Counted from the first letter of the stretch, positions 508 to 60,064 are shown. The stretch: 64,000 bases of DNA from Candidatus Parcubacteria bacterium (GCA_026004535.1 BPJI01000001.1:233491-297490), one strand, 5' to 3'. Notes: generated from the sequence alone by a model not told the origin. Made by a program: numbers and translations.

Positions 508-514
508 AATATTA

Positions 515-775
515 ATATAATTTACTACCCGGATTATAACCGGATATAATTACCCGGATTTAAATCAGATAGAGCTACCTGGATATAAACCGGATAATAC
601 TACCCGGATTTTTGCCGGATAAATTAGCCGGATGCAAACCGAATACAATTACCCGTATATAATCCGGATTTATCCGGTAATCATCCGGGTAAAATAATCC
701 GCTATTTATCCGGGTATATATATTTAATCCGGTGTTTATCCGGGTAGATATAATCCGGTGATCATCCGTGTAAAA
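515..775. repeat. CCGGAT-family palindromic tandem array (forward TACCCGGAT copies then reverse ATCCGGGTA copies, ~11-bp phase)
   Basis: Direct reading: about 11 forward copies (515-650) followed by about 9 reverse-complement copies (655-775). Intergenic between nifS-like and htrA-like genes. Confidence 0.9.
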
Positions 776-792
776 TAAGATATTATTTCAGC

Positions 793-2058: not shown

Positions 2059-2599
2059 TTAAAATATTTAAATTATAAAGAGCCTTTTCATATTCATGAA
2101 AAATAGTTAAATACTCATCTTCAGTTAAATTGATTTCTTCATTATTTTTCAGTTTTTCTTCAATAATTGTTACGATTTTATAGGCTTTTTTAATTTCTTC
2201 TAAATTAGGCAAAAATTCAATTGAAACTTTATTTAATTTTTCTTCCAATTTATCAGTATAACCAAAAACAGTCAAGACAAAATCAAAAAAATTATTAATT
2301 TCAATTAAGGCTTTATTTTTATCCTGATAAAAAATTTTTTTAATTTCTTCAAAATTCTTTTTTGGATTTTTTAAAAATTCAAAATCTTTCAGGTTTTTAA
2401 TTAATGTTTTCCAGTAATTAGTTTCATCTTTAGTCTCTTTTTCAATTTTTAACCAATAAAAAATCATTAAACCAGTGATTATTATTGAGAAGAAAAAGCC
2501 AAATGCTTTTAAAATTTCAACTGGTGTTTGGAATAAAAAGCGATTAATACCTTCAACCAATGAAAGAATTCTTCCAATTGTTAAATCAAAGATTGTCAT
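2024..2599 (-). CDS. hypothetical membrane-anchored protein
   Basis: 191-aa ORF with one N-terminal TM helix followed by K/E-rich helical region. No recognisable family. Confidence 0.3.
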   Translation of the reverse strand: MTIFDLTIGRILSLVEGINRFLFQTPVEILKAFGFFFSIIITGLMIFYWLKIEKETKDETNYWKTLIKNLKDFEFLKNPKKNFEEIKKIFYQDKNKALIEINNFFDFVLTVFGYTDKLEEKLNKVSIEFLPNLEEIKKAYKIVTIIEEKLKNNEEINLTEDEYLTIFHEYEKALYNLNILTIEDFLVRNQG

Positions 2600-2612
2600 C
2601 TTTTTAATTTTA

Positions 2613-2702
2613 ACGCAAACAGATGCGAACTATACGCTAACTTAATACGAACAATATCATTGTTCGCGTCAATTCGCGTCAAGTTCGCGTTAATTTCGCG
2701 AT
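2613..2702. repeat. GCGAAC/TTCGCG-family palindromic tandem array
   Basis: Forward copies acgcaaac/atgcgaac/tacgaac, centre aatatcattg, then reverse gttcgcgt x4. The right arm overlaps the last 8 codons of gatA. Confidence 0.85.
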
Positions 2703-4073
2703 CTCAATTTCTTTTAAAAATTTAAATAAGCTTTCTTCTTCAAATAAATTACCAATAATTTGAGCACCAACAGGCAAATTATTAACCCAACCAATATTAA
2801 AAGCTAAAGCTGGTAAATAGGCTAAATTAATTGGTACAGTAAAAATGTCTGATAAATACATTGACAGCGGATCAGTTGTTTTTTCGCCTAATTTAAATGG
2901 TAAAGTTGGCGAAGTCGGCATTAAAATTAAATCTACTTCTTTAAATGCTTTTTGGAAATCTTCATAAATAAATTTTCTTGTTTTTAAGGCTTTTAAGTAG
3001 TAAGCTTCATAATAACCATGGGATAGGACAAAAGTGCCTAATAAAATTCTTCTTTTAACTTCCTGACCAAAACCAAGCTCTCTTGAGTTCAAATATTTTT
3101 CTAAAAGATGATCGGTTTCATAACTTAGACCATAACGAATGCCATCATAACGAGCTAAGTTTGAACTTACTTCAGCAGTCATAATTAAATAATAAGTTGG
3201 TAGAGCATAGGGGAGAGATGGTAAAGATATTTTTTTAATTTCAAATTTTTCTTTTATTTTTTCTAAAAAATTTTCAAAAACATCTTTAACTTCTTTTTCA
3301 AGACCTAAACTAAAAACTTCTTCAGGAACACCTATTTTTCTAATTTCTTTTATTTTTTCAACATAATTTTGTGAAGTACTATCTAATTCATCCTTACCGC
3401 GGGTAATTCTAAAAACTAAAATTAAATCATCCAAATCTTTAGCTAATGGTCCAATTTGATCCAAAGAAGAGGCCATAGCAATTAAACCATATCGAGAAAT
3501 AGCTGAATAAGTTGGTTTTAAGCCATAAATACCGCAAAAACCAGCTGGTTGTCTAATTGAACCACCAGTATCAGAGCCTAAGGCAATTGGTACTAAACCA
3601 GCACCAACAACTGCGGCCGAACCTCCGGATGACCCCCCAGGAACTCTCGTTTGATCAAAAGGATTTAGGGTTTGAAAAAAAGCAGAATTTTCAGTTGAAG
3701 AACCCATAGCAAATTCATCTAAATTTGTTTTGCCAACAATAATTGCACCTGATTGTTTTAGTTTTTTAATCACAGTTGCATCATAAACAGCAGTATAATT
3801 TTCTAAAATTTTAGAACCAGCAGTACATTTTATACCCTCAACTAAAATATTATCTTTAATCGCAATCGGAATTCCCCACAATGGCAAATTTCTATCTTTA
3901 TTTTTTAATTCTTTAATAGTTTTATAAGCTAATTCTTCATTCAAAAACAAAAAACCTTTAATTTTTTTATCTTCCTCTTTTAAAAACTCAAAATAATGAT
4001 GATAAAAATCTTCCAGATCTGTTTCAGTTAAAATGTTCCTGATATCTTTAATTGTTAAATTTTTAAAGTTCAT
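2679..4073 (-). CDS. gatA: Glu-tRNA(Gln)/Asp-tRNA(Asn) amidotransferase subunit A
   Basis: Amidase signature GGSSGGSAAVV, Ser-cisSer-Lys context, length 464 aa. Confidence 0.85.
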   Translation of the reverse strand: MNFKNLTIKDIRNILTETDLEDFYHHYFEFLKEEDKKIKGFLFLNEELAYKTIKELKNKDRNLPLWGIPIAIKDNILVEGIKCTAGSKILENYTAVYDATVIKKLKQSGAIIVGKTNLDEFAMGSSTENSAFFQTLNPFDQTRVPGGSSGGSAAVVGAGLVPIALGSDTGGSIRQPAGFCGIYGLKPTYSAISRYGLIAMASSLDQIGPLAKDLDDLILVFRITRGKDELDSTSQNYVEKIKEIRKIGVPEEVFSLGLEKEVKDVFENFLEKIKEKFEIKKISLPSLPYALPTYYLIMTAEVSSNLARYDGIRYGLSYETDHLLEKYLNSRELGFGQEVKRRILLGTFVLSHGYYEAYYLKALKTRKFIYEDFQKAFKEVDLILMPTSPTLPFKLGEKTTDPLSMYLSDIFTVPINLAYLPALAFNIGWVNNLPVGAQIIGNLFEEESLFKFLKEIEIAKLTRT

Positions 4074-5906: not shown

Positions 5907-7790
5907 ATGAGAGAAAAAATAAGAAATTTTGCCATAATTGCTCATATTGATCATGGTAAATCAACTTTAGCTGATAGATTTTTGGAAATTACTGGAACTG
6001 TAAGTAAAGATAAATTAGTGCCTCAATATTTAGATAGACTTTCTTTGGAAAGGGAAAAGGGAATAACAATAAAGATGCAGCCAGTAACAATGGAATATCA
6101 AGGCTATATTTTGAATTTAATTGATACTCCTGGTCATATTGATTTTAATTATGAAGTTTCAAGAGCCTTAGCCGCAGTTGAAGGAGTAATTTTACTCATT
6201 GATGGAACTCAAGGTGTTCAAGCCCAGACAATTCATAATTTAGAATTAGCAAAAAAACAAAATTTAGTTATTATTCCTGCGATTAATAAAATTGATTTAG
6301 AAATTCACAATTTAGATGATCTACTTGAAGATATTTATAGATTAACAGGCGAAAGAGAGGTATATTTAATTTCGGCTAAATTAGGAACAGGAGCCGAGGA
6401 ATTATTAAAAGCAGTAATTGAAAAAATTCCTTTCCCAAACGGTTGTGAAAATTACCCAGATATAAACCAGATAAAATTACCCGGATATAAACCAGATAAA
6501 ATTAGTTATCAGGGCGATAATATATCCGGTTCTCATCCGGGTAATACATCCGGTCAACATCTGGGTAATATAGCAGGCAAAGCATTAGTTTTTGATTCTC
6601 ATTTTGATTCTTATAAAGGAATAATTGCCCATGTTAGAATTTTTGAGGGTGAATTTAGAAAATTTCAGGAAGCTTATCTAAGGCAAGCAAAATATAAATT
6701 TAAGATTCTAGAAGTTGGAATTTTTAAACCAGAACTCGAAGAAAAGGAAAAATTAGAATCAGGAATGATTGGTTATCTGGCTACTGGGATTAAAGATCCG
6801 GGAATTTTAAAAATTGGTGAGACAATAACTTTTGATTTAGATACCGAACCACTTTCTGGTTATCAGGAACCAAAACCAGTTGTTTTTGCTTCTGTTTTCC
6901 CTTCAACTAATATTAGTTTTGAAAATTTTGAAAATAGTTTAAAGAAATTTCAATTACAAGATCCTTCAATCTATTTAGAAAAGACAAACTCGCCATTTTT
7001 GGGCAAAGGCTATAATGTTGGAGCAATGGGGCTACTTCATTTAGAAATTTTTGAACAAAGATTAAAAAGAGAATTCCAAACTGATATTATTTTAACTTTA
7101 CCTTCAATTAGATATAAAGCAGTTTTAAAAAATAATCAAGAAGTTTTTATTATTAATCCAAATGAAATTGATTTAGCCCAAGTTTTATATTTTGAAGAAC
7201 CATTTATTGAAGTTGAAATATTTACGCCAATAACTTACAGTGAAAATATTTTTAGTTTAATTAGAAATTCAAGAGGAATAATAAAAAATCAAGTAGTTGA
7301 AGGAAGTTTTTTAAAAATTGTTACTGAAATGCCCTTAGAGGAATTAATTTCGGGATTTTATGATGAATTAAAATCAGTTTCTTCTGGTTATGCTTCATTA
7401 AGATGGCAATTTTTGGATTACCGAAAATCTGATTTAGTTAAATTAGATATTTTAATTGCTGAACAAACGGAGTCAAGCCTTTCAAGGATTATTCATCGAG
7501 ATAAGGCTGAAAAAATTGGCAGAAAAATTCTTTTAGAATTAAAAGAAAATTTGCCCCGAGAAGAATTTGCGATTAAATTACAAGCAGCAATTAATAATCG
7601 AATCATTGCCCGAGAAACTATTCCTGCTTTAAGAAAGGATGTTGCTGGTTGGCTTTACGGTGGTGATCGAACAAGAAAAATGAAATTATGGCAAAAACAA
7701 AAAGAAGGTAAGAAAAAATTACAAGAATTAGGCAAGGGTAAAGTAAAAATTCCTAATGATGTTTTATTAAAAATTTTAAAAGTTCGATGA
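5907..7790 (+). CDS. lepA: translation elongation factor 4 (LepA) carrying a ~40-aa in-frame repeat-derived insertion
   Basis: GTPase motifs AHIDHGKST, DTPGH, NKID. LepA C-terminal domain present. Residues ~185-228 are encoded by a CCGGAT-family array. Confidence 0.9.
   Translation: MREKIRNFAIIAHIDHGKSTLADRFLEITGTVSKDKLVPQYLDRLSLEREKGITIKMQPVTMEYQGYILNLIDTPGHIDFNYEVSRALAAVEGVILLIDGTQGVQAQTIHNLELAKKQNLVIIPAINKIDLEIHNLDDLLEDIYRLTGEREVYLISAKLGTGAEELLKAVIEKIPFPNGCENYPDINQIKLPGYKPDKISYQGDNISGSHPGNTSGQHLGNIAGKALVFDSHFDSYKGIIAHVRIFEGEFRKFQEAYLRQAKYKFKILEVGIFKPELEEKEKLESGMIGYLATGIKDPGILKIGETITFDLDTEPLSGYQEPKPVVFASVFPSTNISFENFENSLKKFQLQDPSIYLEKTNSPFLGKGYNVGAMGLLHLEIFEQRLKREFQTDIILTLPSIRYKAVLKNNQEVFIINPNEIDLAQVLYFEEPFIEVEIFTPITYSENIFSLIRNSRGIIKNQVVEGSFLKIVTEMPLEELISGFYDELKSVSSGYASLRWQFLDYRKSDLVKLDILIAEQTESSLSRIIHRDKAEKIGRKILLELKENLPREEFAIKLQAAINNRIIARETIPALRKDVAGWLYGGDRTRKMKLWQKQKEGKKKLQELGKGKVKIPNDVLLKILKVR
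6450..6580. repeat. CCGGAT-family palindromic array embedded in-frame in lepA
   Basis: attacccagat/attacccggat forward copies then atccggttct/atccgggtaat/atccggtcaa reverse copies. No stop codon in the lepA frame. Confidence 0.85.
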
Positions 7791-8866
7791 AGCTTTTAAT
7801 CCAAAAAGTAAAAGATGTAAGAATAGATGATAAAGATTACCCGGATAAGGACCAGATAGAGTCACCCGGATTTAAACCGGATATGATTAACTACCCGGAT
7901 AATAACCGGATAGAACTATCCGGATTTGAACCGGATAAAGTTAATCATCTACAAGATGAGAAACAAATAAAACTAATTTTGAGTGATTTAACAAATAAAA
8001 TCATAGGTATTTTATTTAAAGTACATAATATATTAGGTCCAAGCTTTAAAGAAGTACAATATAAAAAAGCAATAGAGGACGTTCTATTAAAGGAAAACAT
8101 AGATTTCAAAAAAGAAATCTCTGTCCATATAGATTTTAAATCATTTAAATTAAAAGATTTAAGAATTGATTTTATCATCGAAAATAAATTAATATTGGAA
8201 GTCAAGTCTAAGCCGTTTCTTACAAAAGAAGATATGAGACAAACTTTAAGATATTTAAAAGTTACAGATCTACCCCTAGCCATATTAGTCAATTTCAGAA
8301 GAAAAAAGTTAGAATACAAAAGAATAATAAATCCTGAAGTAATAGATAAATATAGCCCATCCGGTGAAAATCAGGGTAACCAATCTGGTAAACATCCGGG
8401 TAATAACATATCCGGTAATCATCCGGGTAATATATCCGGTTTTCATCCGTGTAATAACATATCCGGTTCTCATCCGGGTAAAATATCCGATAAATATCCG
8501 GGTAATAATTTATTATTAATTTATGTTGGGATTGAAAAAGGAGATGAAAATAAAAATTTAGAAGAAATTGTTAATTATTTAGAAAATTTACAAATTATTG
8601 ATGAAAATGGTAAATTTGCAAAAACAATGAAAGAAACAAAGCCTGTTTTTGTTTTTATTTCTAATATAACTTTATTAGCTGGGTTTGAAAAGGGAAGAAT
8701 AAATTTTAATCGAGCTTTAGAACCAAAATTAGCCAAAGAAATTTTCAAAAAATTAATCCAGGTTTTTAAAAATAAAGGTTATCAAGTTTTTTCTAAAGAA
8801 TTCGGCAGTTATTTAGAGATTACCTCCACTAATGTTGGTCCAATAAACTTTTATCTTCAAATTTAA
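7787..8866 (+). CDS. dtd: D-aminoacyl-tRNA deacylase reading frame interrupted in-frame by a ~670-bp composite element (fusion protein or inactivated gene)
   Basis: N-terminal MKLLIQKVKDV and C-terminal LLLIYVGIEKGDE..SNITLLAG..NVGPINFYLQI match Dtd motifs (MIALIQRV / LLVLLGVEKDD / SQFTLAAD / NDGPVTFWLQV). The 224 codons between them are repeat + GxxExxY module. ATGA overlap with lepA stop. Confidence 0.6.
   Translation: MKLLIQKVKDVRIDDKDYPDKDQIESPGFKPDMINYPDNNRIELSGFEPDKVNHLQDEKQIKLILSDLTNKIIGILFKVHNILGPSFKEVQYKKAIEDVLLKENIDFKKEISVHIDFKSFKLKDLRIDFIIENKLILEVKSKPFLTKEDMRQTLRYLKVTDLPLAILVNFRRKKLEYKRIINPEVIDKYSPSGENQGNQSGKHPGNNISGNHPGNISGFHPCNNISGSHPGKISDKYPGNNLLLIYVGIEKGDENKNLEEIVNYLENLQIIDENGKFAKTMKETKPVFVFISNITLLAGFEKGRINFNRALEPKLAKEIFKKLIQVFKNKGYQVFSKEFGSYLEITSTNVGPINFYLQI
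7838..8509 (+). mobile_element. composite element: forward CCGGAT array (7838-7948) + GxxExxY PD-(D/E)xK nuclease module (7949-8353) + reverse CCGGAT array (8354-8509)
   Basis: Terminal arrays are reverse complements of each other and belong to the same family as the cargo-less arrays elsewhere in the window. The whole element is stop-free in the dtd frame. Confidence 0.55.
7949..8353 (+). other. GxxExxY-family PD-(D/E)xK nuclease-like domain (no own ATG; in-frame with dtd)
   Basis: LTNKIIGILFKVHNILGPSFKEVQYKKAIEDVL..RIDFIIENKLILEVKSK..LRYLKVTDLPLAILVNFRRKKLEYKRII matches the GxxExxY consensus (E.LT..IIG..vH..LGpG.lEsvYe.AL..EL; D..v.....vELK; llnYlk.tg...gllINF). Confidence 0.65.
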
Positions 8867-11478: not shown

Positions 11479-13068
11479 TCAAGAAATTGGCAATTTTACA
11501 TAAAATTTACTTCCTTTACCTTCGCCTTCTGATTCAGCCCAAATTTTACCCTGATGAGCCTCAACTAAATTCTTGACAATGTAGAGTCCTAAACCAGTGC
11601 CTCTAATTTCTTTTTTAATTGAAGGATCGCGAACAAATTCACCAAAAAGCTTGCTTTGTAATTCTTTTGACATTCCAATACCAGAATCACTAACACAAAT
11701 TAATAATTCATTATTTTCTTTATTAACACTTACCTTAACCCATCCTTGAGAAGTATATTTAATAGCATTATCAATTAAATTTTGGATAATTTGAGCAAAT
11801 CTTAATTTATCAACTTTCAGAATTATTTGCTCAAGATTAGTTTCAAAACTTAGCTCTAAATTCTTTTCTTTGGCTAAGAGTATAAAATTATTTACAATTT
11901 CTTTAATCAAACCAATAATTTCGACTTCTTCAAAGTTAAGCTCTAATTTTCCTTCTTCAATTCGACGATAATCCATAAATTCTTCAATTAAAACTAAAAG
12001 TTTATCAACTGAATCCTTAATTTTTTTGGCAAAATCTTTTGCTTGCTCAGGTACATTTTCGATTCCATCAGCAATCAACTCAGCATAACCTTTAACAACC
12101 GCCATGGGTGCTTTCACCTGATGAGACGCAAACGAAAGAAACTCCGACTTAATTCTGTTTAATGTTTCCAATTTTTGATTGAGTTTAGCTAATTTTTCTC
12201 GTTGTTCAATCTCTTGATAGACAGAACGGATTAGGAATATACTGAGAACGAAAGATAAAGCTAAAATAGTCAATCTAGTTATAATTTCTACAAAGTTTTT
12301 GTACTGGCTTAATTCGAATAAATTAACTAATAAAAGAACGATAATAAAAATCGCTGCTGAGGCCAATTTAACGTTGAATAATTCATATTTGTGAATTCCT
12401 AAACTTAAACTTATTATGAATGGTAACATAAAAAAACCACTGAAAGGAATAAAATTAGAATTATTAAAAAAATTAGGAAAAATAAAATCAAAAGTTATTA
12501 CTAGGAATGAAGTAAGCAAAAATGAAACTATTATTAACAAATATTTACCTTTTTCATTTTTGCTTCGTAAATACTTAACTACCAGATTTTTTAAAGCCAA
12601 TAAGTTAAAATATATAGTTGTTAAGCCGAAAATGATGATACCAAATTTTCGTATTTCTGGATTTAGTGGATTAATAGAAATAATTTTAGAAACCAATAAT
12701 TGTGTTAAGCTTATAATTGACATCAGTGATGTTAAAAATAGATGAATATAGAAAACTTTCTTGTTTCCTGACAATCTTTCGTCGGGGTAAAAGTATGAAA
12801 TTGCATATATAAGAAAATTGATCCAGGCAGCAGTAAAAAGTAAAAACCTAAAAATAATTAATGTGATGTTATAATCTGTAGATTTAAATAATAATACGGC
12901 CAAAAGGGACCATATTGCCACAAGAATTGTATAAATGAAAAAAACTATATTTGTTAAGCTTTTTCTATTCTTTAAATAAGCGATATACCCCAGGATAAAA
13001 ATAACTATACTAGTAGCTGTTGCTATTGTGATATCAAAATTTAAAATTATATTTCTAACAATTTCCAT
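11479..13068 (-). CDS. sensor histidine kinase with ~7-TM N-terminal sensor region
   Basis: Multiple predicted TM helices in the first 270 aa. H-box SHQVKAP, HATPase G-boxes DSGIGM, GTGLGLYIV. Confidence 0.8.
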   Translation of the reverse strand: MEIVRNIILNFDITIATATSIVIFILGYIAYLKNRKSLTNIVFFIYTILVAIWSLLAVLLFKSTDYNITLIIFRFLLFTAAWINFLIYAISYFYPDERLSGNKKVFYIHLFLTSLMSIISLTQLLVSKIISINPLNPEIRKFGIIIFGLTTIYFNLLALKNLVVKYLRSKNEKGKYLLIIVSFLLTSFLVITFDFIFPNFFNNSNFIPFSGFFMLPFIISLSLGIHKYELFNVKLASAAIFIIVLLLVNLFELSQYKNFVEIITRLTILALSFVLSIFLIRSVYQEIEQREKLAKLNQKLETLNRIKSEFLSFASHQVKAPMAVVKGYAELIADGIENVPEQAKDFAKKIKDSVDKLLVLIEEFMDYRRIEEGKLELNFEEVEIIGLIKEIVNNFILLAKEKNLELSFETNLEQIILKVDKLRFAQIIQNLIDNAIKYTSQGWVKVSVNKENNELLICVSDSGIGMSKELQSKLFGEFVRDPSIKKEIRGTGLGLYIVKNLVEAHQGKIWAESEGEGKGSKFYVKLPIS

Positions 13069-13069
13069 A

Positions 13070-14134
13070 TTATAACCAATTTATTATTGGTTGTCTTTTA
13101 TAAGATACTGCTGATGGAGGCTGTGTCTTTCCTATTCTAAAAAGAAAAGCTAAAATTTTATTTTTTTCATTAACATCAAAAACGTCAATTATTTTTTGAT
13201 AAGATTCATTTATTATTTGTTTTTCTCTTTTACTAAAGGTATTATCATCTTCTGAATTGATTCTTTGCCATAAAAACGGTACTCCTGTAATTAAATGAAA
13301 ACCTAAATTTAATTTTGTAGATCTGAGCCAGATATTTTCTAATAATTTCCCGGCATAGATAAAATCAGAATCATTATTGTTGATGAACATACCGCCGATT
13401 AAGGCACACGATTGAGCTGTTTTAATGCTACCTTGATTAATTTTTTTGACAAAACCTATCTTTTTAAAAATACTTAATATCGGCCAATATCTAAAAAGTT
13501 TAAAAATTTTAATTGCCTGGGGAGGTATTTCTAGTGTTCTTACGTATAATCCACTTTTATAGTGTTGCTCTTTCTCTTCAAATAAAATCTCTTTAAACAT
13601 AAGTTTATGCATTGTTCTGTTCGAAAAATTTATCAATGAATCCTTAGTAATATTCTGTGCTAAATTTTCTATTTTTGTTCTATCGTCTATTAGGATAACC
13701 TTGCACTGAGGATAATTCGATATTTCTTTTAATAGAAAAGTTTTTTCGTTTTCTTGAAGTGGTTCAGTGCTGAATGGTTTTCTGTTAGAGCATCTTTTTT
13801 CAATAAATTCAAAAAGATCTTCATTGCTTTCTGTGTCTGAGTTTAGCGGTATAAATCTTATTGCCAAAGATATTCTATTACGAGGAAAAATTTCGTAATT
13901 TATTTTGTAACCAAAATGTTTAGCAGCTATTTCTATGTTTTCTAATAAGGCGCCATGAGCAATATAGGTCCCTCGGTTTTTATAATTTAATATTGGATGA
14001 TCTTTTTCTGGCAGCATAACCACTTCTAAAACTGATTCATTGATTTTAACATTAAATTCCCATGGTTGAGAGTTTCCACCAGAAGGAGCAAGATTACCAG
14101 CTTTAATTATTTGTTCTAACAATTCTTTTTCCAT
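13070..14134 (-). CDS. nitroreductase-superfamily protein with two tandem half-domains (SagB/McbC-type dehydrogenase-like)
   Basis: APSGGNSQPWEF motif near N-terminus and second RCSNRKPFSTEP nitroreductase start ~110 aa later. 2-nt gap to the kinase gene. Confidence 0.55.
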   Translation of the reverse strand: MEKELLEQIIKAGNLAPSGGNSQPWEFNVKINESVLEVVMLPEKDHPILNYKNRGTYIAHGALLENIEIAAKHFGYKINYEIFPRNRISLAIRFIPLNSDTESNEDLFEFIEKRCSNRKPFSTEPLQENEKTFLLKEISNYPQCKVILIDDRTKIENLAQNITKDSLINFSNRTMHKLMFKEILFEEKEQHYKSGLYVRTLEIPPQAIKIFKLFRYWPILSIFKKIGFVKKINQGSIKTAQSCALIGGMFINNNDSDFIYAGKLLENIWLRSTKLNLGFHLITGVPFLWQRINSEDDNTFSKREKQIINESYQKIIDVFDVNEKNKILAFLFRIGKTQPPSAVSYKRQPIINWL

Positions 14135-14168
14135 TCTTATATTATATTTTTATTTTAATTAAAATTTT

Positions 14169-15284
14169 TCAAAAATTAAAAAACTTTCTAATTTTATTTA
14201 AAAATTTTTTTCTTTTGATTTCATTTTTGTTAAATTCAGGATCTAAAATTTTTTCGATATTGAAATCATATTTTCCCGATCTGATTTTCTTACCCAGAAG
14301 AATACTTCTTACAGTATAGGCAGTTATGCCAGCCGAGATGAAGGCTGCTGTTGAGAGCTGGGGCCAAGAATATAATGTTTTTCCTATTTCTAATACTGAA
14401 GTTAAAGATCTTAAAGGTACTAAGTTTAAATCTATAATTTTAGCCATTGCTTCATAAAGTTTTTGTGGTGATTTTTTTATCTCATCGAAATTAAATCCTG
14501 TTAATCGCCCTCCAAAAATTTCTAAATTTTTATCAATATCAAACCTTTCAACATCTAAAATAACATTATCGCCATTATCAGTAGCCATAACAACAGGAAT
14601 TTTTAGCTTTTTAGCTTCTTCTCGAATTTTAACTTTGATTACAACATCGTCTAGCTCTTCGATAATAATATCCAATCCTCTAATGAAAGTTTTGTAATTC
14701 CTATCATTAAGACCTTCGTTAAATACTTCTATTTTTAAATAGGGATTTAATTGATAAGCAAAGCAAAATAATGCTTCAGTTTTATTTGCCCCGACCCAGG
14801 TGAAATCAAATGGCATTCTGTTTAAATTACTAGGAGCAATAAAATCTGGGTCAGATATTTTAAAATGTCTTCCCACGCCCATCAATAAAAGACATAAAAA
14901 TATATTACTTCCAACACTTAAACCAGCAATACCTATTTTAGAGTTATAAATTTTATTCTGTTCTTCGAGGGTAATTAGGTTTCTATTTCTTGCCAACCTA
15001 ACTTCCTGGTGCAATTTATCTGGTAAATAATGAACCAAATATTTATTCCATGGAAAATAAACCCAATTACCCAATTTTGTTAACGATTTACCATTCGTAT
15101 GTTTTTTTACAAACAGTTCAAATTCTTGTTGATAATTTTTATTAAATTTGAATCGTGGATTCCTTATTAAAAACAAATCCTCGAGTTGAAGCTTATAAGT
15201 ATCAATTATTCTATTAACTTTATATTTTCTTGAAAATTCTTTTAAATTTAATTTGTCAGCTTTGATAATTATCGGCTTAAGCAT
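14169..15284 (-). CDS. E1-like ThiF/MoeB/MccB-family adenylyltransferase with ~85-aa N-terminal extension
   Basis: RLARNRNLITLEEQNKIYNSKIGIAGLSVGS (Rossmann/GxGxxG) and ISDPDFIAPSNLNRM (E1 DxD...SNLNRQ motif). The Cys-free N-terminal extension precedes the E1 core. Confidence 0.7.
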   Translation of the reverse strand: MLKPIIIKADKLNLKEFSRKYKVNRIIDTYKLQLEDLFLIRNPRFKFNKNYQQEFELFVKKHTNGKSLTKLGNWVYFPWNKYLVHYLPDKLHQEVRLARNRNLITLEEQNKIYNSKIGIAGLSVGSNIFLCLLLMGVGRHFKISDPDFIAPSNLNRMPFDFTWVGANKTEALFCFAYQLNPYLKIEVFNEGLNDRNYKTFIRGLDIIIEELDDVVIKVKIREEAKKLKIPVVMATDNGDNVILDVERFDIDKNLEIFGGRLTGFNFDEIKKSPQKLYEAMAKIIDLNLVPLRSLTSVLEIGKTLYSWPQLSTAAFISAGITAYTVRSILLGKKIRSGKYDFNIEKILDPEFNKNEIKRKKFLNKIRKFFNF

Positions 15285-15285
15285 T

Positions 15286-16803
15286 TTATCTGGTTAAAAC
15301 CCATTTATGTTTACTGCCTGATTTAAAAAATTTTTCATGTCCATATGGCCAAAATATTAATTTTGGATAAGCTCTTTCTTTTAAATTGTTTGACAATTCT
15401 CTATATTCCGATGATTTTTCTCTTAAGGTTTCAACAATTTTTTTAAGGGCTATTTTCTCGTAATATTTTTTAAAAACAACCCCCTTTTTAAGTTCTAAAT
15501 TAATTTCTAAATATTGATTTTGTTTAGGGTTATATTTTGTTGTCATGGTAAATTTGCCTGTTAGGAAGCTGGATAATTCTTTACTTAATATAGCTGATTT
15601 TATAAACTCTGGAAAGATTAAAATAGCATATAAAGTCGTAGCTAAATTTTTCCGTTCATAAACATAAACAAAAGGCAGTTCAAATAATAAACTATCTATT
15701 TTGTATTTTCTGGCTATTTTAATAATATCTAGTTTTTTATTTTTAAAATAATCTTTAAAATATGAATAATTGAATATTCCTCCTCTATCGCCAATTTGAT
15801 ATCTAATTAAAGGTATAGCATTATCACCTGTTAGAATTAGTTCGCCATTTTCTTCTTCAAAATTCACAAAATAAGGTATAAATTGCGCTAAAGTAGGAGT
15901 TTTGCTGATGTCGCCGAATGTCTCCTTTAAAAAATTTTTATTTTTAACACAAAGATGTCTGATTAGGGCTGCTAACGGTGTTTCAAAGGCGGTAGCACCA
16001 AATTCAGAAGAGCCATAAGCGTTCATTATGTCTAATAGTATATTAAGATTAAGTTTTTCTTTGAAGTAATATTTTAATTCTTCAGGGAAAGGTTCGCCCG
16101 CTAAAATTAATCTTATTTTAATCCTGGAAATGTCAATTTTACTATCAATAAGTTCATCAATTATATCTTTGACAAATGGAGGATAGCCTGCTATTATTAT
16201 TTGTCTATAGTAAGGCGCAATATCTTTAAAAATTTTGATTACTTCTTGTTTATTAACCCCAGGTGAAATAATTGAAAGATTTGTCCGGCCTAATGCATTG
16301 CCTAAATAGCAACCTAATAACATCCCGACGCCAGCACTCCAGACGCCCATTCCAAAAGTAATAATAAATAATGTCGGTTTGGTTAAAAATGATGGACGAT
16401 AACTTAAAAATAATTCTGTTCCTATCTCTCGAATTAAGTCAAATCTCGGTTCTCTAAAAAAATATGTTGGTTTACCGGTTGTGCCTGATGAAGCATGGAT
16501 AGTTAGGGGTTTTTGAAAAGTGCCATCCCATAATAATTTTTTATAATCATAATAATGAACATAATTTTCTTTTGTTGTTGGAGGTAATAATTTAAAATCT
16601 TCTAAAGTTTTTATTTTTTCAGGATTAACTTTATTTCTTTTGAGAAAGTCTTTATAAGCAGGTACTTTCTGAGCCGCCATGTGAAAAAGTTTTAGGGTGC
16701 GTTCTTCTTTTATTTTATCCCAATCTTTAATTTTATTTATCTTGATTTCTGATATTATTTTATTAATAAATTTCCTGAATTGTTTTATATTATGGGGAAA
16801 CAT
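15286..16803 (-). CDS. adenylate-forming enzyme, PaaK/coenzyme-F390-synthetase-like (ANL superfamily)
   Basis: AMP-binding P-loop ASSGTTGKPT and YQIGDRG motif typical of the phenylacetate-CoA ligase clade. 505 aa. Confidence 0.65.
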   Translation of the reverse strand: MFPHNIKQFRKFINKIISEIKINKIKDWDKIKEERTLKLFHMAAQKVPAYKDFLKRNKVNPEKIKTLEDFKLLPPTTKENYVHYYDYKKLLWDGTFQKPLTIHASSGTTGKPTYFFREPRFDLIREIGTELFLSYRPSFLTKPTLFIITFGMGVWSAGVGMLLGCYLGNALGRTNLSIISPGVNKQEVIKIFKDIAPYYRQIIIAGYPPFVKDIIDELIDSKIDISRIKIRLILAGEPFPEELKYYFKEKLNLNILLDIMNAYGSSEFGATAFETPLAALIRHLCVKNKNFLKETFGDISKTPTLAQFIPYFVNFEEENGELILTGDNAIPLIRYQIGDRGGIFNYSYFKDYFKNKKLDIIKIARKYKIDSLLFELPFVYVYERKNLATTLYAILIFPEFIKSAILSKELSSFLTGKFTMTTKYNPKQNQYLEINLELKKGVVFKKYYEKIALKKIVETLREKSSEYRELSNNLKERAYPKLIFWPYGHEKFFKSGSKHKWVLTR

Positions 16804-16824
16804 TTTTTTAAATTTTTATCGTTT

Positions 16825-17289
16825 TTAAACATTTTTAGTAACTTCATTATATGACTTGCCATTAGTAACTAAAATGCCGATAAAAAACCCCGAACCTTTT
16901 ATGTACCGATGTGAGTGCTTAATACCAGCTGGTATATAGACAGCAACAGGTGAATTTAATATATAATTTTCATCACCTAAAAATACTTCTACTTTTAAAC
17001 CTTTAAGATTTTTTTTATTTCCAATCCACATATACATTTGATCAACAGAATGACTATGATATGAAACATGAGGTTTTGTATTTTTAACATTATCTAAAAC
17101 CCTACAAGCTACGAATAACTTACCTTTTGGGTTATTAATATTATCAGAAAATTTATACAAATATGGAGTAAGCCCTTTAACTATATGATGAGCCGACATA
17201 TTGGTAAATAATTCTTTTCTAGGAGTTAAAATTAAGTTTTTAAATTTATTTTTATGAGTCGTTTTTTTATTTTTTTGTGTTCGTTTCAT
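16825..17289 (-). CDS. small cupin-fold protein (likely starts at internal Met ~17196)
   Basis: HSHSVDQMYMWI...GD..YIPAGIKHS resembles the two-motif cupin signature. K-rich N-terminal 30 aa probably not translated. Confidence 0.4.
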   Translation of the reverse strand: MKRTQKNKKTTHKNKFKNLILTPRKELFTNMSAHHIVKGLTPYLYKFSDNINNPKGKLFVACRVLDNVKNTKPHVSYHSHSVDQMYMWIGNKKNLKGLKVEVFLGDENYILNSPVAVYIPAGIKHSHRYIKGSGFFIGILVTNGKSYNEVTKNV

Positions 17290-17569
17290 TGTTTTAGAAT
17301 AATTAAATTACGACATTGAGAATTATAAATATTATTCAAATTTGATATAAACTTCGACCTTACTTTGCTCTGTCTATTTGTTTTTTGCCTAAATTCAACC
17401 AATAATCAGATGGTAGTGTTTTTAATTCCTTTAATCTTTTATCTCCTCTTTGTGGATATTTAAAATATATAAATTTTTTATTATCCGTATAAAGTTTTTA
17501 AAATAACGTTTTTTTGAAATTTCAGACAATTTTCAACAATTTCAGATAGTGTATTTTAAACTAATTCTT

Positions 17570-17930
17570 CCTTAGTAAGCCATTTGATTTCTTCTACATT
17601 TTCAGGCGGTTCGAAGTTGTTTTGTTGATTTTTGTTATCAAGATAGCATACAATTACTGTTTTGAAAAAACCCTTGCTTTGTTTTATTAAGCGAAAATCT
17701 AAGGTATTTTGTACTTGATACATTGCTTTTACTTTATAACCTGTTTCATAGAGTACTATCTTTTCGGCTGCTTGTTCTCTTATATCTCCTTTTAATTGAT
17801 CGCCACTTGGAGTAAACCAAATAGGTCCGGGGTCATAATTTACTTCGCAAACTTCTAAAAAGCCTTTGGGAATTTCCTTTTTAACACCTAAAATTTCGTT
17901 CTTTTCATTAAAAACTCAAATAATTATGAA
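17570..17930 (-). pseudogene. NUDIX-hydrolase-like remnant without usable start codon
   Basis: Minus-strand translation gives ..PSGDQLKGDIREQAAEKIVLYETGYKV.. (Nudix-box-like G-x5-E-x7-REuxEExG pattern). The frame is bounded by a stop with no in-frame ATG until late. Confidence 0.3.
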
Positions 17931-18244
17931 GAATTGCATTTATATTTAATATTATAATTATATCATAACTTTACAAATCTATAATTTAATTTGATCTTGG
18001 TGATAGAGTAAATATAATTTTTTTTATTTTTTATAATCTTATTTTTTTATATTATATAATTTTAAATGACATTTATAGTTATTAATTAATACAATAGTAA
18101 TAGATAATTTCTCAATTTCTTAAGAAATTGAGAAAATCAGGTTAAAACACTTTAAATTCAATTTCCAACATGTGGAAGGCTACAAAACCCTCAATTTTCC
18201 TTAATTTTTTAACCTCCTCCAACTCTTGACAAATTGATTCTTGA

Positions 18245-18276
18245 CCCGAACCCTATGTGGTTTGGGGTTTTTGATG
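18245..18276 (+). terminator. hairpin + U-tract upstream of radical SAM gene (terminator/attenuator-like)
   Basis: CCCGAACC-ctatgt-GGTTTGGG followed by GTTTTTGATG. Confidence 0.3.
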
Positions 18277-18314
18277 TATTAAAGTAGAAATCTAAAAGAA
18301 AGGAGGTGAGAAAG

Positions 18315-24702: not shown

Positions 24703-25028
24703 TGGTAAAAACAAAACAGTCTGAACAACAAATTGTTAGATTAAGATTTAGATCTTATGATCACAATTTACTTGATAAATCATTAAAGCAGATTGTTGAT
24801 TTATTACAGAAAGAGGGAATAGAAGTTAGAGGTCCAATACCATTGCCGACCGAAATTAAAAAATATACTGTTAATCGTTCGCCCTTTATCTATAAAAAAA
24901 GTATGGAGCAATTTGAAATGAGAATCCACAAAAGAATTTTAGATATTCTTAATCCTTCGCCAAGAATTTTAGAATTATTTAACTCTCTTGATTTACCAGC
25001 AGGTGTAGAGGTGGAGATAAAAGTGTAA
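24702..25028 (+). CDS. rpsJ: 30S ribosomal protein S10
   Basis: IRLRFRSYDHNLLDKS..RGPIPLPT S10 consensus. Confidence 0.9.
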   Translation: MVKTKQSEQQIVRLRFRSYDHNLLDKSLKQIVDLLQKEGIEVRGPIPLPTEIKKYTVNRSPFIYKKSMEQFEMRIHKRILDILNPSPRILELFNSLDLPAGVEVEIKV

Positions 25029-25032
25029 AATA

Positions 25033-25215
25033 GATTACCCGGATAAATACCGGATAGATTACCCGGATAACTAACCGGATTATTTTACCCGGATGATTAC
25101 CGGATAAATCCGGTTTATATCCGGTCTAAATCCGGGTAGTTGTATACGGTTTAAATCCGGGTAAATTCATCCGGGTGTACATCCGGGTAGTTCTATCCGG
25201 CTTATATCCGGGTAA
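25033..25215. repeat. CCGGAT-family palindromic array between rpsJ and rplC
   Basis: 7 forward TACCCGGAT/ACCGGAT copies then 8 reverse ATCCGG(G)T copies. Fills a 198-bp gap inside the S10 operon. Confidence 0.9.
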
Positions 25216-25226
25216 GCAGCTATTAG

Positions 25227-30247: not shown

Positions 30248-30250
30248 GAA

Positions 30251-30371
30251 ACAGAACTTACTGAACTGATGCAGAACTGACGGAATTTTTCTGCGAGTTC
30301 TGTGTGAGTTCAGTAATTTCCGCGGTAGTATTTTTCTGTAAGTTCTATGTTCGTTCCGTAAGTTCTGCGTA
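30251..30371. repeat. CAGAAC/GTTCTG-family palindromic tandem array
   Basis: acagaact/actgaact/gcagaact/gacggaat then gagttctg/gagttcag/aagttcta/aagttctg. Lies between dnaE and ligT-like gene. Confidence 0.85.
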
Positions 30372-30378
30372 CTTGAAA

Positions 30379-31876: not shown

Positions 31877-32593
31877 ATGGAAACACAAATCCAACAACAA
31901 GTTCAAGAGAGGATTTTTGGTGAAATGATGAAAGCTGGTGTTCATTATGGCCGAGCCAAAAGATACACTCATCCATCAATTAAAAATTTTCTTTTAAAGT
32001 CAAATAAGAATATTGAATTTTTTAACTTGAGATTAACTTTGCAAAAATTAAATGAGGTTAGTGATTATTTGAAACAGGCTTTGGCTGAAAATAAAAAAAT
32101 TTTATTTGTTGGTACGACTCCAGCAAGTCAAAACAAAATTCAAGAAATAGCTCAAGCTCTAAATCAGTATTATTTAAACTATAAATGGGTTGGTGGTTTT
32201 TTAACTAATTTTCAAACAATTAAAGCAAGGCTAATATATTTTAGAGAATTACTGAAAAAAGAAGAAAGTGGTGAAATTCAAAATTTGCCTCCAGCCCAAA
32301 GAGTGAAAATAGAAAAAGAACTTCAAAAATTAAAAAATCTTTATTCGGGAGTAGTTAATTTAGATTCTTTGCCCGATATTGTTTTTATTGTTAATTTGGC
32401 TTATAAACAACACAAAACAGCCAAAAGAGAAGCAATTAGAATGAAAATACCAATTATTGCTTTAGCTGGTTCAGATAATGATGTAAGTAATGTTTTTTTA
32501 TTTGTCCCTGGTAATGACAAAGCACCAAGAAGCATTGCTTGGCAACTAGATTATCTTTTGTCGAAAGTAAAAACACAGAATATACAGAACTAA
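31877..32593 (+). CDS. rpsB: 30S ribosomal protein S2
   Basis: MKAGVHYGRAKRYTHPSIKNF..IFNL..T S2 N-terminal consensus. 238 aa. Confidence 0.85.
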   Translation: METQIQQQVQERIFGEMMKAGVHYGRAKRYTHPSIKNFLLKSNKNIEFFNLRLTLQKLNEVSDYLKQALAENKKILFVGTTPASQNKIQEIAQALNQYYLNYKWVGGFLTNFQTIKARLIYFRELLKKEESGEIQNLPPAQRVKIEKELQKLKNLYSGVVNLDSLPDIVFIVNLAYKQHKTAKREAIRMKIPIIALAGSDNDVSNVFLFVPGNDKAPRSIAWQLDYLLSKVKTQNIQN

Positions 32594-32697
32594 CATAGAA
32601 CTCACAGAAAAATTCCGTCAGTTATGCTTCAGTTCTGTATAGTTCTACATCTAAAAAAATTCAGTAAGTTCAACGTCAGTTCAGTTAGTTCTGTATA
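32583..32697. repeat. CAGAAC/GTTCTG-family array (mixed orientation) overlapping last codons of rpsB
   Basis: tacagaact/catagaact ... cagttctgta/tagttctaca/cagttcagt/tagttctgtat. Confidence 0.8.
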
Positions 32698-32708
32698 AAA
32701 TATAAAAA

Positions 32709-33600: not shown

Positions 33601-33690
33601 GTTATAATTTATAATAGAAATAGGTCGGCATAGCTCAATGGTACCTGCCTGCAGGCAGGCAGGGATGGTTTTGTAAATCGAAGTGACTGC

Positions 33691-33762
33691 GCCGAGGTAG
33701 CTCAACGGTAGAGCAGGGGCTTTGTAAGCCCAAGGTTAGGGGTTCGAATCCCCTCCTCGGCT
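33691..33762 (+). tRNA. tRNA-Thr (anticodon TGT)
   Basis: Manual fold: acceptor GCCGAGG/CCTCGGC, D-arm GCTC-AACGGTA-GAGC, anticodon loop TTTGTAA, T-arm AGGGG-TTCGAAT-CCCCT, discriminator T. CCA not encoded. Confidence 0.8.
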
Positions 33763-33766
33763 CAAG

Positions 33767-50337: not shown

Positions 50338-50465
50338 ACCTAATTAACTCGAATTTATTTGTATATATTCGTGTATATTCATTATATAAAAATATTCGAA
50401 TAAATTCGCGTATATTCGTAATATAAAAAAATTCGTATATATGCGTTATAAATTCGAATCAATAT
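50338..50465. repeat. ATTCG/GCGAAT-family tandem array (mostly one orientation)
   Basis: attcgtgta/attcgaata/attcgcgta/attcgtaat/attcgtata/tgcgttata/attcgaatc. Confidence 0.8.
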
Positions 50466-50536
50466 GGATAAAACACAATTAAAATTAACTCTGTTTTAGA
50501 TCATTTAAAGCGCGAGAACTCTGTTATAATTAAATT

Positions 50537-55608: not shown

Positions 55609-55636
55609 AACGCGGATAGCTGCAGAAAAATATTTT

Positions 55637-55885
55637 TACCCGGATATGAACCGGATAATACTACCCGGATATAGACCGGATAGAACTATCCGGATTATAA
55701 CCGGATAAGTTACTCGGATTTAAACCAGATTTATCCGGTAATCATCTGGGTAAAATAATCCGGTAGTTTATCCGGGTAATCTATCCGGTTGACTATCCGG
55801 GTAAATATTTTAATATCCGGTATTTATCCGGGTGAAATAATCCGGTAATCATCCGGGTAATTATATCCGGTAGATCATCAGGGTA
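55637..55885. repeat. CCGGAT-family palindromic array (forward 55637-55730, reverse 55735-55885)
   Basis: tacccggat x5 then atccggta/atccgggta x9. Lies between membrane-protein gene and rplU. Confidence 0.9.
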
Positions 55886-55923
55886 GTTAAAACATTTCAG
55901 TAGCTGTCTGCGCATTTAAAAAA

Positions 55924-58778: not shown

Positions 58779-59963
58779 ATGAATAAAAAAATGAATAAAT
58801 CCTTCACTTTAGTTGAACTCTTAGTTGTCTTAGCTCTAATAGCTATCTTAGCTACTGTCTTAATTGTTGTCATTAAGCCAGCAGATATCTTTAAAAGAGG
58901 TAGAGATAGTCAAAGAACTTCAGACCTTAAAAATCTTGAAAAAATATTTGACCTTATTCTTTTTGAAACTCAAGGCACCTTTTCTGAACTTCAATATGCT
59001 TCCTCAAATGTTGTCTATATCTCTCTTCCTGATACTTCATCAACTTGTGGTCAATGGATAAGTCAATTACCACAGCTTCCTTCAGGCTGGTCATATAGAT
59101 GCTCAGCAACTCCAACAAATATTGATGGTACTGGCTGGATTCCTATTCCTTTTAATCAATTTTCAAGCATTAATCTTTCTAGACTTTTCATTGATCCAAT
59201 CAATAGACCTCCATATTACTATGCATTTGTTGCTGGAGGAAGTTATGCTCTCTATGCTCAATTAGAAAATCCTCAGTCTCAAGCCTCAAAAACAGACAAT
59301 GATAATTATCCTCATCTATTTTCAGTAGGAACAAATAAAAGACTCATTGATCAAGCTCAAGGACTTGTAGGGTATTGGTCTTTTGATGAAGGAACTGGAA
59401 ATATTGCTAATGATTATTCAGGAAACAATAATAATGGAACACTCTATAATGGTCCTCAATGGGTTGATGGTAAAGTAGGCAAAGCTTTAAGTTTTGATGG
59501 AGTGGATGATTATGTCCAGACACCGTTATCCTCTAACATATTACCCCTAACAATTGAAGTATGGTTTAAAACAAATGTTAATACTGGGGAACATTCTATT
59601 GTTGATAGCGACGTCAGTGGGCGCTATGGGCAATCAATTATATTGGGCTATATGTATGGGGATAATACCTTAGACGTAGAATATCATGATGGATGGTATG
59701 ATTCTCCTTTTGTTGTTGGGGTAGGAGTTTGGCACCATGCGGTTGCAATTTTTACGACAGGGAAAGTGGAACTTTATGTAAATGGTAATTATATTGGTTC
59801 ACTAGTATTTACACAAGGATTCCTAGATGGAGATAATTTTAGAATCGGTAGGCACAATTCGGGCGACCCACAATGGTTCAATGGTCTCATCGACGAAGTC
59901 CGCATTTACAATCGCGCTTTATCAGATCAAGAAATTAAAGCATTATATGAAGCAATAAAGTAA
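58779..59963 (+). CDS. type IV pilin-like protein with C-terminal LamG-like (concanavalin A-like lectin) domain; only intact member of 3-copy family
   Basis: Prepilin-type N-terminus MNKKMNKS|FTLVELLVVLALIAILA with Glu+5. C-terminal LamG hallmark GLIDEVRIYNRALSDQEIKALY. Extended -10 TGTTATAAT at 58764-58772. Confidence 0.8.
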   Translation: MNKKMNKSFTLVELLVVLALIAILATVLIVVIKPADIFKRGRDSQRTSDLKNLEKIFDLILFETQGTFSELQYASSNVVYISLPDTSSTCGQWISQLPQLPSGWSYRCSATPTNIDGTGWIPIPFNQFSSINLSRLFIDPINRPPYYYAFVAGGSYALYAQLENPQSQASKTDNDNYPHLFSVGTNKRLIDQAQGLVGYWSFDEGTGNIANDYSGNNNNGTLYNGPQWVDGKVGKALSFDGVDDYVQTPLSSNILPLTIEVWFKTNVNTGEHSIVDSDVSGRYGQSIILGYMYGDNTLDVEYHDGWYDSPFVVGVGVWHHAVAIFTTGKVELYVNGNYIGSLVFTQGFLDGDNFRIGRHNSGDPQWFNGLIDEVRIYNRALSDQEIKALYEAIK

Positions 59964-60012: not shown

Positions 60013-60064
60013 CAATTTTTACTTTAGATAATATATAGTTTTCATCATGGTATTAATATCCAGT

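Follow-up and report, generated by a model that had tools for sequence, protein, structure and literature searches.

Bacterial MITEs, or miniature inverted-repeat transposable elements, insert beside or into genes and can make fusions or new gene ends (PMC10969869), and the BOX element has variable internal tandem modules. The Foldback transposons of eukaryotes carry long inverted termini built of short tandem subrepeats. Mycobacterial interspersed repetitive units (MIRUs) were reportedly described by Supply and colleagues in 1997 as tandem repeats in short operon spacers, where small open reading frames (ORFs) overlap the flanking stop and start codons. Rickettsia palindromic elements (RPEs) are short palindromes of reduced genomes that are often found in frame in unrelated housekeeping genes and are translated (reviewed in PMC10969869), and repetitive extragenic palindromes (REP/REPIN sequences) are dispersed in intergenic spacers, inverted copies flanking the gene of a presumed mobilising enzyme (PMC3733652). 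The subject of the present analysis is a family of short inverted repeat arrays in a stretch of 64,000 nucleotides (64 kb; “the window”) from the 556-kb genome of a Candidatus Parcubacteria bacterium (GCA_026004535.1, BPJI01000001.1:233491-297490), where three essential proteins, GatA, L22 and S2, end in residues read from inserted arrays. The arrays probably constitute a foldback, MITE- or RPE-like family of mobile elements of the Patescibacteria, with a motif that varies by genome and locus, and the three protein tails would be by-products of insertion.

Each element comprises a run of short GC-rich motif copies placed 9-14 nt apart, followed by an AT-rich loop and then by the motif in reverse complement. 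At least 12 such arrays, 103-315 nt in size, are present in the window, and their motifs are strongly clustered when counts are compared with the expectation from composition. Hairpin z-scores were computed against dinucleotide shuffles; they lie between -2.9 and -10.6, and every array tested forms a hairpin that is long but imperfect. For domain scans, 48 window ORFs were compared with Pfam, and four of these 48 also with NCBIfam. Comparison contigs, mostly from relatives, carry L-labels. The features of the three junctions at which essential genes end in repeats are as follows.

2600..2702, minus strand: GCGAAC/GTTCGC foldback array of 103 nt, bounded by gatA codon E457 on one side and by the start codon (ATG) of the following gene on the other; L125, L126 and L127 lack it; hairpin z = -4.7.
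2679..2702, minus strand: repeat-derived gatA end, IAKLTRT and TGA (two CGCGAA copies), judged from orthologue tails and the empty site of L125; the TIGR00132 match stops at residue 457.
2596..2599, minus strand: ancestral ATGA, in which the start of a 191-aa downstream gene overlaps the orphaned original gatA stop; L125 reads ..GAGCAATGACAAT.
32576..32702, plus strand: CAGAAC/GTTCTG foldback array, 127 nt long, that separates rpsB codon T233 from tsf; empty in L136, with an orthologous array (74% nucleotide identity) in L138; z = -5.6.
32576..32593, plus strand: repeat-derived S2 end, QNIQN and TAA, judged from orthologue tails.
32703..32705, plus strand: probable orphaned ancestral rpsB stop, a TAA 3 nt before the tsf ATG; L136 reads ..TCGTAAAAATGAAC.
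42314..42481, plus strand: CACGGAT/ATCCGTG foldback array of 168 nt, flanked by rplV codon D109 and by the run of A residues that precedes rpsC; L137 and L082-L086 have an empty site, and in L128 and L131 an array occupies the identical nucleotide position; z = -6.0.
42314..42334, plus strand: repeat-derived L22 end, TTDKHG and TAA, substituting for the native KK and stop.
42486..42488, plus strand: orphaned ancestral rplV stop, the TAA of TAATG (42486-42490), overlapping the rpsC ATG at 42488, by comparison with empty sites.

The gatA gene (2679..4073, minus strand) encodes a protein that ends ..FLKEIE + IAKLTRT. Its final seven codons and TGA (2702..2679; ATC GCG AAA TTA ACG CGA ACT TGA) are two copies of CGCGAA(A/C). 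The array contains four forward-type and four reverse-type copies spaced 10-11 nt apart, and 4 of the 7 TTCGCG copies in the window fall within it. In relatives, ..FLKEIE is followed by Q, E, NDNL or similar. At the empty site of L125, gatA terminates with the TGA of ATGA, a stop that overlaps the start of the 191-aa gene, which is conserved, and in L126 and L127 gatA overlaps the next gene by 14 nt. The 103 inserted nucleotides of the window lie between the gatA GAG and ATGACAATC, and the insertion displaced the native Q only.

The rplV gene (41987..42334) encodes an L22 that ends ..ELD + TTDKHG, nucleotides 42311-42334 reading GAT ACC ACG GAT AAA CAC GGA TAA. The six codons and stop from 42314 are two copies of CACGGATAA, D109 is ancestral, and in a family profile search the L22 match stops at residue 108. 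CACGGAT is expected 1.4 times per strand in 64 kb; it was found 4+8 times, with seven of these copies in the rplV array. Relatives with 78-94% identity in L22 mostly end in LDKK. Others have variable tails that start directly after LD, e.g. TRINADQTRINTDNI, which is the same kind of repeat in another frame; repeat-coded tails in other frames include ..LDTRINADQTRINTDNI and ..LDTRINADQTQISS.. as well. At the empty sites (..GATAAAAAATAATGGG; L137, the closest relative, with 93% nucleotide identity in rplV, and L082-L086) the rplV stop overlaps the rpsC start (TAATG), and in the window 168 nt stand between GAT and AAAATAATGGG with the old TAATG intact. The arrays of L128 and L131 lie at the same nucleotide as that of the window, but their motif is CGCGGAT/ATCCGCG, not CACGGAT/ATCCGTG, both arms having changed together. 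The p-distance in L22+S3 is 0.07 between the window (filled) and L137 (empty) and 0.04 between L128 and L131 (filled) and L083 (empty); presence and absence of the array alternate, always at the same nucleotide, among genomes that are 4-7% diverged in these two proteins.

The rpsB gene (31877..32593) encodes an S2 that ends ..KVKT + QNIQN (codons ACA CAG AAT ATA CAG AAC TAA). As the first-pass annotation had it, the CAGAAC array overlaps the last codons of this gene: 32576-32593 (CAG AAT ATA CAG AAC TAA) are two copies of ACAGAA(T/C). In a family profile search the S2 match stops at residue 227, and S2 of relatives ends ..SKIKS or ..AKIKT. The empty rpsB-tsf site of L136 has a 2-nt spacer (junction TAAAAATG); in the window, TAA-AAA-ATG (32703-32711) still flanks the tsf start. 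The orthologous array of L138, the closest relative, is of the CAGAAC type as well, but a TGA occurs within its first nucleotides. Other arrays occupy this junction in L134 and L135, where S2 has the tails ..RRLTQT and ..RINTDYYADQRR, each followed by a stop. The native end of S2 is kept in the window, and no residue was lost.

Over the three sites, GatA lost one native residue (Q) to the insertion and L22 two (KK), S2 lost none, and 5-7 residues were added. The extra residues of the window are conserved in none of the relatives of GatA, L22 or S2. The ancestral stop (for rpsB the probable one) stands beside the downstream start at each site (ATGA, TAATG and TAA-AAA-ATG), and comparison with relatives shows replaced or extended tails with displaced stops at all three. 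The first-pass annotation had proposed that insertions landed inside the 3' ends of essential genes and replaced their termini. The replacement or extension of the tails holds, but the sites are gene junctions with touching or overlapping stop and start codons, not positions deep inside 3' ends. Its assignment of the gatA end to the reverse arm is likewise sound, with the correction that coding is confined to two of the four reverse copies at 2661-2702, the outer ones; of the seven L22 codons it had assigned to the repeat, six and the stop are repeat-read, but D109 is native.

The same annotation had taken the tails as a sign that the elements tolerate translation, and this argument fails. Since a stop after 5-7 codons is ordinary, and within chance, at 8.4% stops per codon (30% GC), the three tails are not evidence of translation tolerance; nor are the intergenic arrays generally open reading frames, having stops in most frames. 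The tails sit, moreover, at C-termini that are of variable length anyway (109-202 aa among L22 relatives, 229-354 aa among S2 relatives). Translation tolerance is real, but it is arrays lying in frame within dtd, lepA, trxB and Bac_transf that show it (see below).

Arrays of the CCGGAT type occupy at least nine window loci. In this commonest type, TACCCGGAT and AACCGGATA alternate at 11 and 13-14 nt to give a 24-25-nt unit, and the reversal follows. Further arrays of the window between genes are listed here.

508..792, plus strand: CCGGAT array filling the aminotransferase-htrA spacer; L125 empty, an ACGGAT-type array in L126; z = -8.8.
25029..25226, plus strand: CCGGAT array filling the rpsJ-rplC spacer; absent in L128 and L131; z = -9.3.
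55609..55923, plus strand: CCGGAT array upstream of rplU; z = -9.1.
30248..30375, plus strand: CAGAAC-type array beginning 4 nt past the dnaE stop, from the motif census.
36231..36347, plus strand: ACGAAT/ATTCGT array in the hisS-HIT spacer; z = -3.5.
50340..50470, no strand assigned: TCGAAT/ATTCGT-type array between divergent femAB-like and pseudopilin genes, from folding and a motif scan.

The same build with other motifs (TACGAA, TGAAAC, GATTCA, CCAGTA, TTTAGG, TACAAA) occurs at other Patescibacteria loci, and complementarity between the arms holds for 12 or more different motifs across loci and genomes. L030 has TACGAA arrays at five loci within 4.6 kb, two of these loci sharing an identical copy of 85 nt, and in L134 a CCGGAT array is nested inside the loop of another array. 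Filled and empty states at the same nucleotide were found at the rplV-rpsC, gatA-next gene, rpsB-tsf, rpsJ-rplC and aminotransferase-htrA junctions; judged from these contigs, the distribution of the elements is sporadic, with filled and empty alleles interspersed among close relatives. When arm was compared with arm, GC cores were conserved and AT spacers were free. Mismatches between arms, read on the transcribed strand, comprised 30 of the G-U type and 39 of the A-C type. This lack of wobble bias, together with the conserved GC cores, favors pairing or copying at the DNA level over a selected RNA structure.

Several local arrangements were recorded alongside these. At the aminotransferase-htrA junction, the outermost right copy is ATCCGTG both in the CCGGAT array of the window (508-792) and in the (C/T)ACGGAT array of L126 (13168-13264), L125 being empty; this suggests that an old array was overwritten from inside or that an insertion was nested. 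The rpsJ-rplC spacer of L128 (7141-7183) contains a different micro-repeat, CTAATG in three to four copies, compared with the 198-nt CCGGAT array of the window. Arrays of ATCCGG(G)TA in one direction, without a forward arm, occur at 39990-40290, 51800-52010 and 60040-60250 (24-25-nt unit, ca. 10-13 copies). Each lies within a segment of ca. 350-400 nt that is present three times in the window, in every case after a LamG/N_methyl pseudopilin gene and before a ribosomal-protein operon (rplW, rplM, rpsL). The pseudopilin gene at 58779..59963 is intact, and its counterparts at 38739-39950 and 50537-51720 seem to have broken frames.

Two elements of the window lie within genes.

6455..6575, plus strand: CCGGAT array in frame in lepA (..YPDINQIKLPGYKPDKISYQGDNISGSHPGNTSGQHLGN..); a diverged copy is at the same place in lepA of L126.
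7838..8504, plus strand: composite element in frame in dtd, with a forward CCGGAT arm (ca. 7838-7940), a GxxExxY/PDDEXK_3 domain (7985-8329) and a reverse arm (ca. 8355-8504).

The dtd product has 359 aa in the window vs. 138 aa in L126, L128 and L131, and the extra 221 aa are the forward arm, the GxxExxY/PDDEXK_3 domain and the reverse arm in one open frame; the chance of encountering no stop across the 105 arm codons is ca. 1e-4. In L126, trxB has a 43-aa insert and the sugar-transferase gene Bac_transf one of ca. 20 aa (LPGFKPDK.. / SGNHPGN..), and both inserts are absent in the window. The ORF of the dtd insert matches TIGR04256 at 98.5 bits (cut-off 35) and PF13366 at 97.4 (cut-off 22), and D128, E138 and K140 of the PD-(D/E)XK core are invariant or nearly so in the family alignment. 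The function of PDDEXK_3 is given as unknown (PMC3424549). In an AlphaFold model of the dtd fusion, the nuclease domain is confident (predicted local distance difference test, pLDDT, 90-98) and the arms are unstructured; structure comparison of this model placed the domain nearest to Cas4 and lambda exonuclease, and a sequence search returned no solved structure for GxxExxY.

The dtd-insert protein was also searched against 1.84 billion representatives, and the best 150 matches were examined. All 50 of the 50 long proteins among these combine PDDEXK_3 with a host domain, and in 34 the domain is internal. The hosts are GatB (7), GT1 glycosyltransferases (7), RecG (4), pseudopilins (4), LepA-type GTPases (3), enolase (2), transketolase (2) and others. 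In the examples read, repeat-coded peptides flank the domain, the right flank matching the reverse complement of the left (LPGHKPD...SGNHPGN in enolase; PRINADTTRMNAD...PRESALNQRSS in transketolase), and the flanks of the 34 internal-domain proteins exceed control windows in periodicity, weakly but significantly (p = 0.003). At the DNA level, L009 has four TACAAA copies, a GxxExxY gene and four TTTGTA copies between rpsN and rpsH; in the DNA compared, only the window and L009 copies of GxxExxY genes were found. In several pseudopilins (proteins P0379, P0391, P0416, P0442, P0450, P0453, P0502 and P0505), the GxxExxY domain is N-terminal to the prepilin cleavage motif G|FTLIE. Judging from the order of these parts, a cut by prepilin peptidase would release a free nuclease and a normal mature pilin.

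The arrays resemble several of the described systems in part. With RPEs they share palindromic repeats in frame in housekeeping genes (dtd and lepA; trxB and Bac_transf in L126), and RPEs are the best functional analogy for dtd, lepA and trxB. Compared by description, however, RPEs are unit-length elements of ca. 100-150 bp with conserved family sequences, whereas the arms here are built of tandem 6-9-nt motifs; none is known to carry a nuclease ORF, and they belong to Alphaproteobacteria rather than Patescibacteria, so that kinship in sequence would not be expected. MITEs and modular repeats (Correia/NEMIS, ERIC, pneumococcal BOX) are likewise non-coding, multi-copy and hairpin-forming with terminal inverted repeats. 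The arrays are of matching size and copy number (<~500 bp, non-coding, multi-copy), their arms are reverse complements (CCGGAT-type ends TACCCGGAT...ATCCGGGTA), and they share with BOX a variable number of internal tandem modules. MITEs differ in deriving from insertion sequences with a recognisable transposase and in having target-site duplications; here the 48 scanned ORFs gave no transposase domain and the sites compared no consistent duplication, and the only internal gene found is GxxExxY/PDDEXK_3, not an autonomous element with a known transposase. In addition, the arms here are themselves tandem arrays, and the motif varies by locus.

Like MIRUs, the arrays are repeats at operon junctions that supply gene ends, but MIRUs are direct repeats of 46-100 bp that have no inverted arm and no hairpin and are not known from genes with a nuclease. 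The arms flanking GxxExxY resemble the repeats that flank a RAYT gene. REP/REPIN sequences, however, each consist of one palindrome of 20-40 bp headed by GTAG or CGTC and are associated with a Y1 (IS200-like) transposase, not a PD-(D/E)XK nuclease; here tandem 6-9-nt motifs take the place of such a head (GGGTAG in some units, GGGTAA in others), the flanked gene is PDDEXK_3, and Y1_Tnp (RAYT) had no match in the scanned ORFs, from 64 kb of the 556-kb genome. The closest structural match is with the eukaryotic Foldback (FB) transposons, which have long inverted termini made up of varying numbers of short tandem subrepeats and may or may not enclose a coding region. They differ in being eukaryotic, far larger, mobilised by P/Mutator-type transposases and not known to be translated in frame; only eukaryotic examples of foldback elements were found in the literature. 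Inteins and homing endonuclease genes offer a last parallel, a nuclease ORF in frame at fixed sites of RecG, GatB, LepA and enolase, sporadic among close relatives. The differences here are the flanking inverted arrays, the PDDEXK_3 nuclease and the lack of a Hint/splicing domain: Pfam and NCBIfam gave only Dtd and PDDEXK_3/GxxExxY in the 359-aa dtd protein, so that the insert would stay in the mature protein.

A sequence of events can be given for the tails. Neighbouring genes in compact Parcubacteria genomes touch or overlap (TAATG, ATGA, TAA-AA-ATG), and an element landing at such a junction parts the upstream ORF from its own stop. Translation enters the first motif copies until an AT-rich spacer gives a stop after 5-7 codons; the downstream gene retains its start, and the old stop is left as an orphan beside it. 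Such insertions may survive owing to the naturally variable C-termini. The elements would be mobile, or would home to the same sites, and array-only copies may be non-autonomous (MITE-like) kin of a composite consisting of a forward arm, a GxxExxY PD-(D/E)XK ORF and a reverse arm. A composite inside a gene would presumably survive only if in frame, its arm peptides (LPGFKPDK.., SGNHPGN..) serving as flexible linkers. Slippage within an arm and conversion between arms would make the arms co-evolve, and this would explain why motifs are specific to a locus or genome and the arms are nonetheless complementary.

The main competitor to insertion is growth in place at each junction, by slippage or template switching from short palindromic seeds, which would make the arrays immobile and the tails incidental read-through. 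It accounts for the restriction of GCGAAC, CAGAAC, CACGGAT and ACGAAT to one or two window loci each, for arrays in which one arm is a perfect tandem and the other degenerate (L070, L029), for the variable copy number of orthologous arrays, for the related motifs at the same junction in related genomes and for the unrelated CTAATG micro-repeat in the rpsJ-rplC spacer of L128. This explanation is nevertheless unlikely, given the spread of CCGGAT over at least nine window loci and of TACGAA over the five L030 loci with their two identical copies, the nested array in L134, the same arms around a nuclease gene within many unrelated genes, and the alternation of filled and empty states at a single nucleotide among relatives 4-7% diverged. 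Selection by the host for regulatory structures appears less likely again. The arrays would then be RNA hairpins that act in termination or attenuation, in processing by RNase III or in keeping mRNA stable, or else phased sites for a DNA-binding protein, with the overlap of gene ends a result of tight packing; strong hairpin potential, a copy spacing of about one helical turn, placement at operon junctions and retention at rplV-rpsC, rpsB-tsf and in lepA across diverged genomes would all suit such roles. Yet the closest relatives lack the arrays and retain overlapping start and stop signals, G-U mismatches are not in excess over A-C, copies occur inside coding sequences, and the motif varies by array, hence no single binding protein would fit. 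No Rfam family matched the arrays; at gathering score, tRNA-Thr was the only match in the whole window. Intrinsic termination was considered specifically and rejected: the three hairpins are followed by TAAAATTAAAAAG, AAAATAATG and TAAAATATAAAAAATG, none with a T-run, and two of the three lie inside operons with genes that overlap in relatives.

It is very improbable that the tails are native and seeded the arrays from gene 3' ends, or that the arrays are artefacts of assembly or annotation. The GATAAA of the ancestral L22 end does resemble the GGATAAA of the motif, but the tail residues are missing from all close orthologues. The 1120-nt Logan contig L001, an independent assembly, is identical to window 41257-42376, including the L22 tail, and breaks off inside the L22 array; the window sequence is therefore not an assembly artefact, and arrays were found in JGI, ENA, NCBI and Logan assemblies alike. 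An alternative genetic code, in which the TGA of gatA would be a sense codon, was ruled out by the long, dense ORFs under table 11 and by the use of TGA as a stop in relatives too. Guide-RNA arrays of the TIGR-Tas or CRISPR kind are the least credible of the alternatives. TIGR (tandem interspaced guide RNA) arrays are common in Patescibacteria and have two alternating repeats without strong sequence conservation (PMC12045711), and CCGGAT arrays also alternate two half-units. TIGR units, however, are 36 nt long, with edge and loop repeats and two variable spacers of 8-12 nt, and run in one direction (PMC12045711), whereas the units here are 20-25 nt long with AT spacers of 3-5 nt and form two inverted arms; they lie inside operons and genes, and the scan of 48 ORFs gave neither a Nop-domain protein nor a Cas protein.

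Several observations weigh against the mobile-element explanation that is preferred here. None of the seven filled/empty comparisons gave a consistent target-site duplication: the rplV insert has TA at its flanks, but the motif contains TA as well, and no consistent duplication was seen at gatA, rpsB or L030. Transposase, RAYT, integrase and Nop had no match in the 48 window ORFs scanned. The link to GxxExxY is one of association, and both the role of this protein and the mechanism of mobility are inferred. As DNA, the composite element was seen twice only, the other cases being deduced from protein flanks with a weak periodicity test (p = 0.003), and the low pLDDT of the modelled arms may reflect only thin alignment coverage. 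Motifs differ among arrays of one genome and, in L009, between the arms flanking GxxExxY and array-only copies, a diversity that is awkward for a sequence-specific enzyme. Lastly, some junctions in related genomes carry related but different motifs, and there in-situ turnover and repeated insertion are inseparable.

Other features of the window were noted. GC-rich palindromic boxes with ACGTC/GACGT cores (TTTACGACGTCGTACGTCGTAAA, GGACGTCGCACGTC) occur at 40340-40365, 52075-52170 and 61065-61120, just upstream of three ribosomal-protein operons, and may be shared operator or promoter elements. A degenerate tRNA-Thr-like copy (33620-33690) with the palindrome CCTGCCTGCAGGCAGGCAGG adjoins the real tRNA-Thr(TGT) at 33691-33763, and nearly the same palindrome, CCTGCCTGCCGGCAGGCAGG, is inside the rpsB-tsf array of L134 (3708-3735). 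The S10/spc cluster is split (23506-26515; 40433-49356): tuf-rpsJ-rplC-rplD is 14 kb from rplW-rplB-rpsS-rplV-rpsC, with dnaE, prfB, rpsB-tsf, hisS and pilin genes between the parts, and in L128 and L131 it runs unbroken through to rplP. A possible peptide-modification cluster (11479-19295) comprises a histidine kinase, two response regulators, a ThiF-like protein, a nitroreductase-fragment protein, two proteins without a family match and a radical-SAM/SPASM enzyme; 17290-18305 is an ORF-poor stretch of 1 kb with a NUDIX-like fragment.

A more specific proposal can be entertained, at somewhat less than an even chance: that they represent an undescribed class of selfish element, in which a stopless GxxExxY nuclease ORF within inverted tandem-motif arrays homes to fixed sites in housekeeping genes and junctions. 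Such elements would be tolerated through read-through, their arms becoming disordered linkers within genes and providing a new stop at junctions, and array-only copies, those at the ends of GatA, L22 and S2 among them, would represent decayed or non-autonomous versions. Recognition by the nuclease would depend on the foldback structure and not on the sequence, which would account for the many arm motifs. No description of such elements was found in the literature on Patescibacteria/Parcubacteria repeats, GxxExxY, PDDEXK_3 or bacterial foldback elements.

Annotation of these genomes should avoid treating the C-terminal residues of L22, S2 and GatA as conserved features. A foldback-type bacterial element with a candidate nuclease from the large PDDEXK_3 family would give that family a testable role. 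The elements offer an explanation for odd lineage-specific tails and low-complexity inserts in conserved proteins, including ribosomal ones, of the candidate phyla radiation (CPR)/Patescibacteria, and likewise for the nuclease domains embedded in GatB, RecG, LepA and enolase; the cause of the odd tails and inserts appears to be the traffic of repeat elements, not functional innovation. The same traffic constitutes a natural experiment on the amount of in-frame junk that is tolerated by the essential proteins of minimal genomes.
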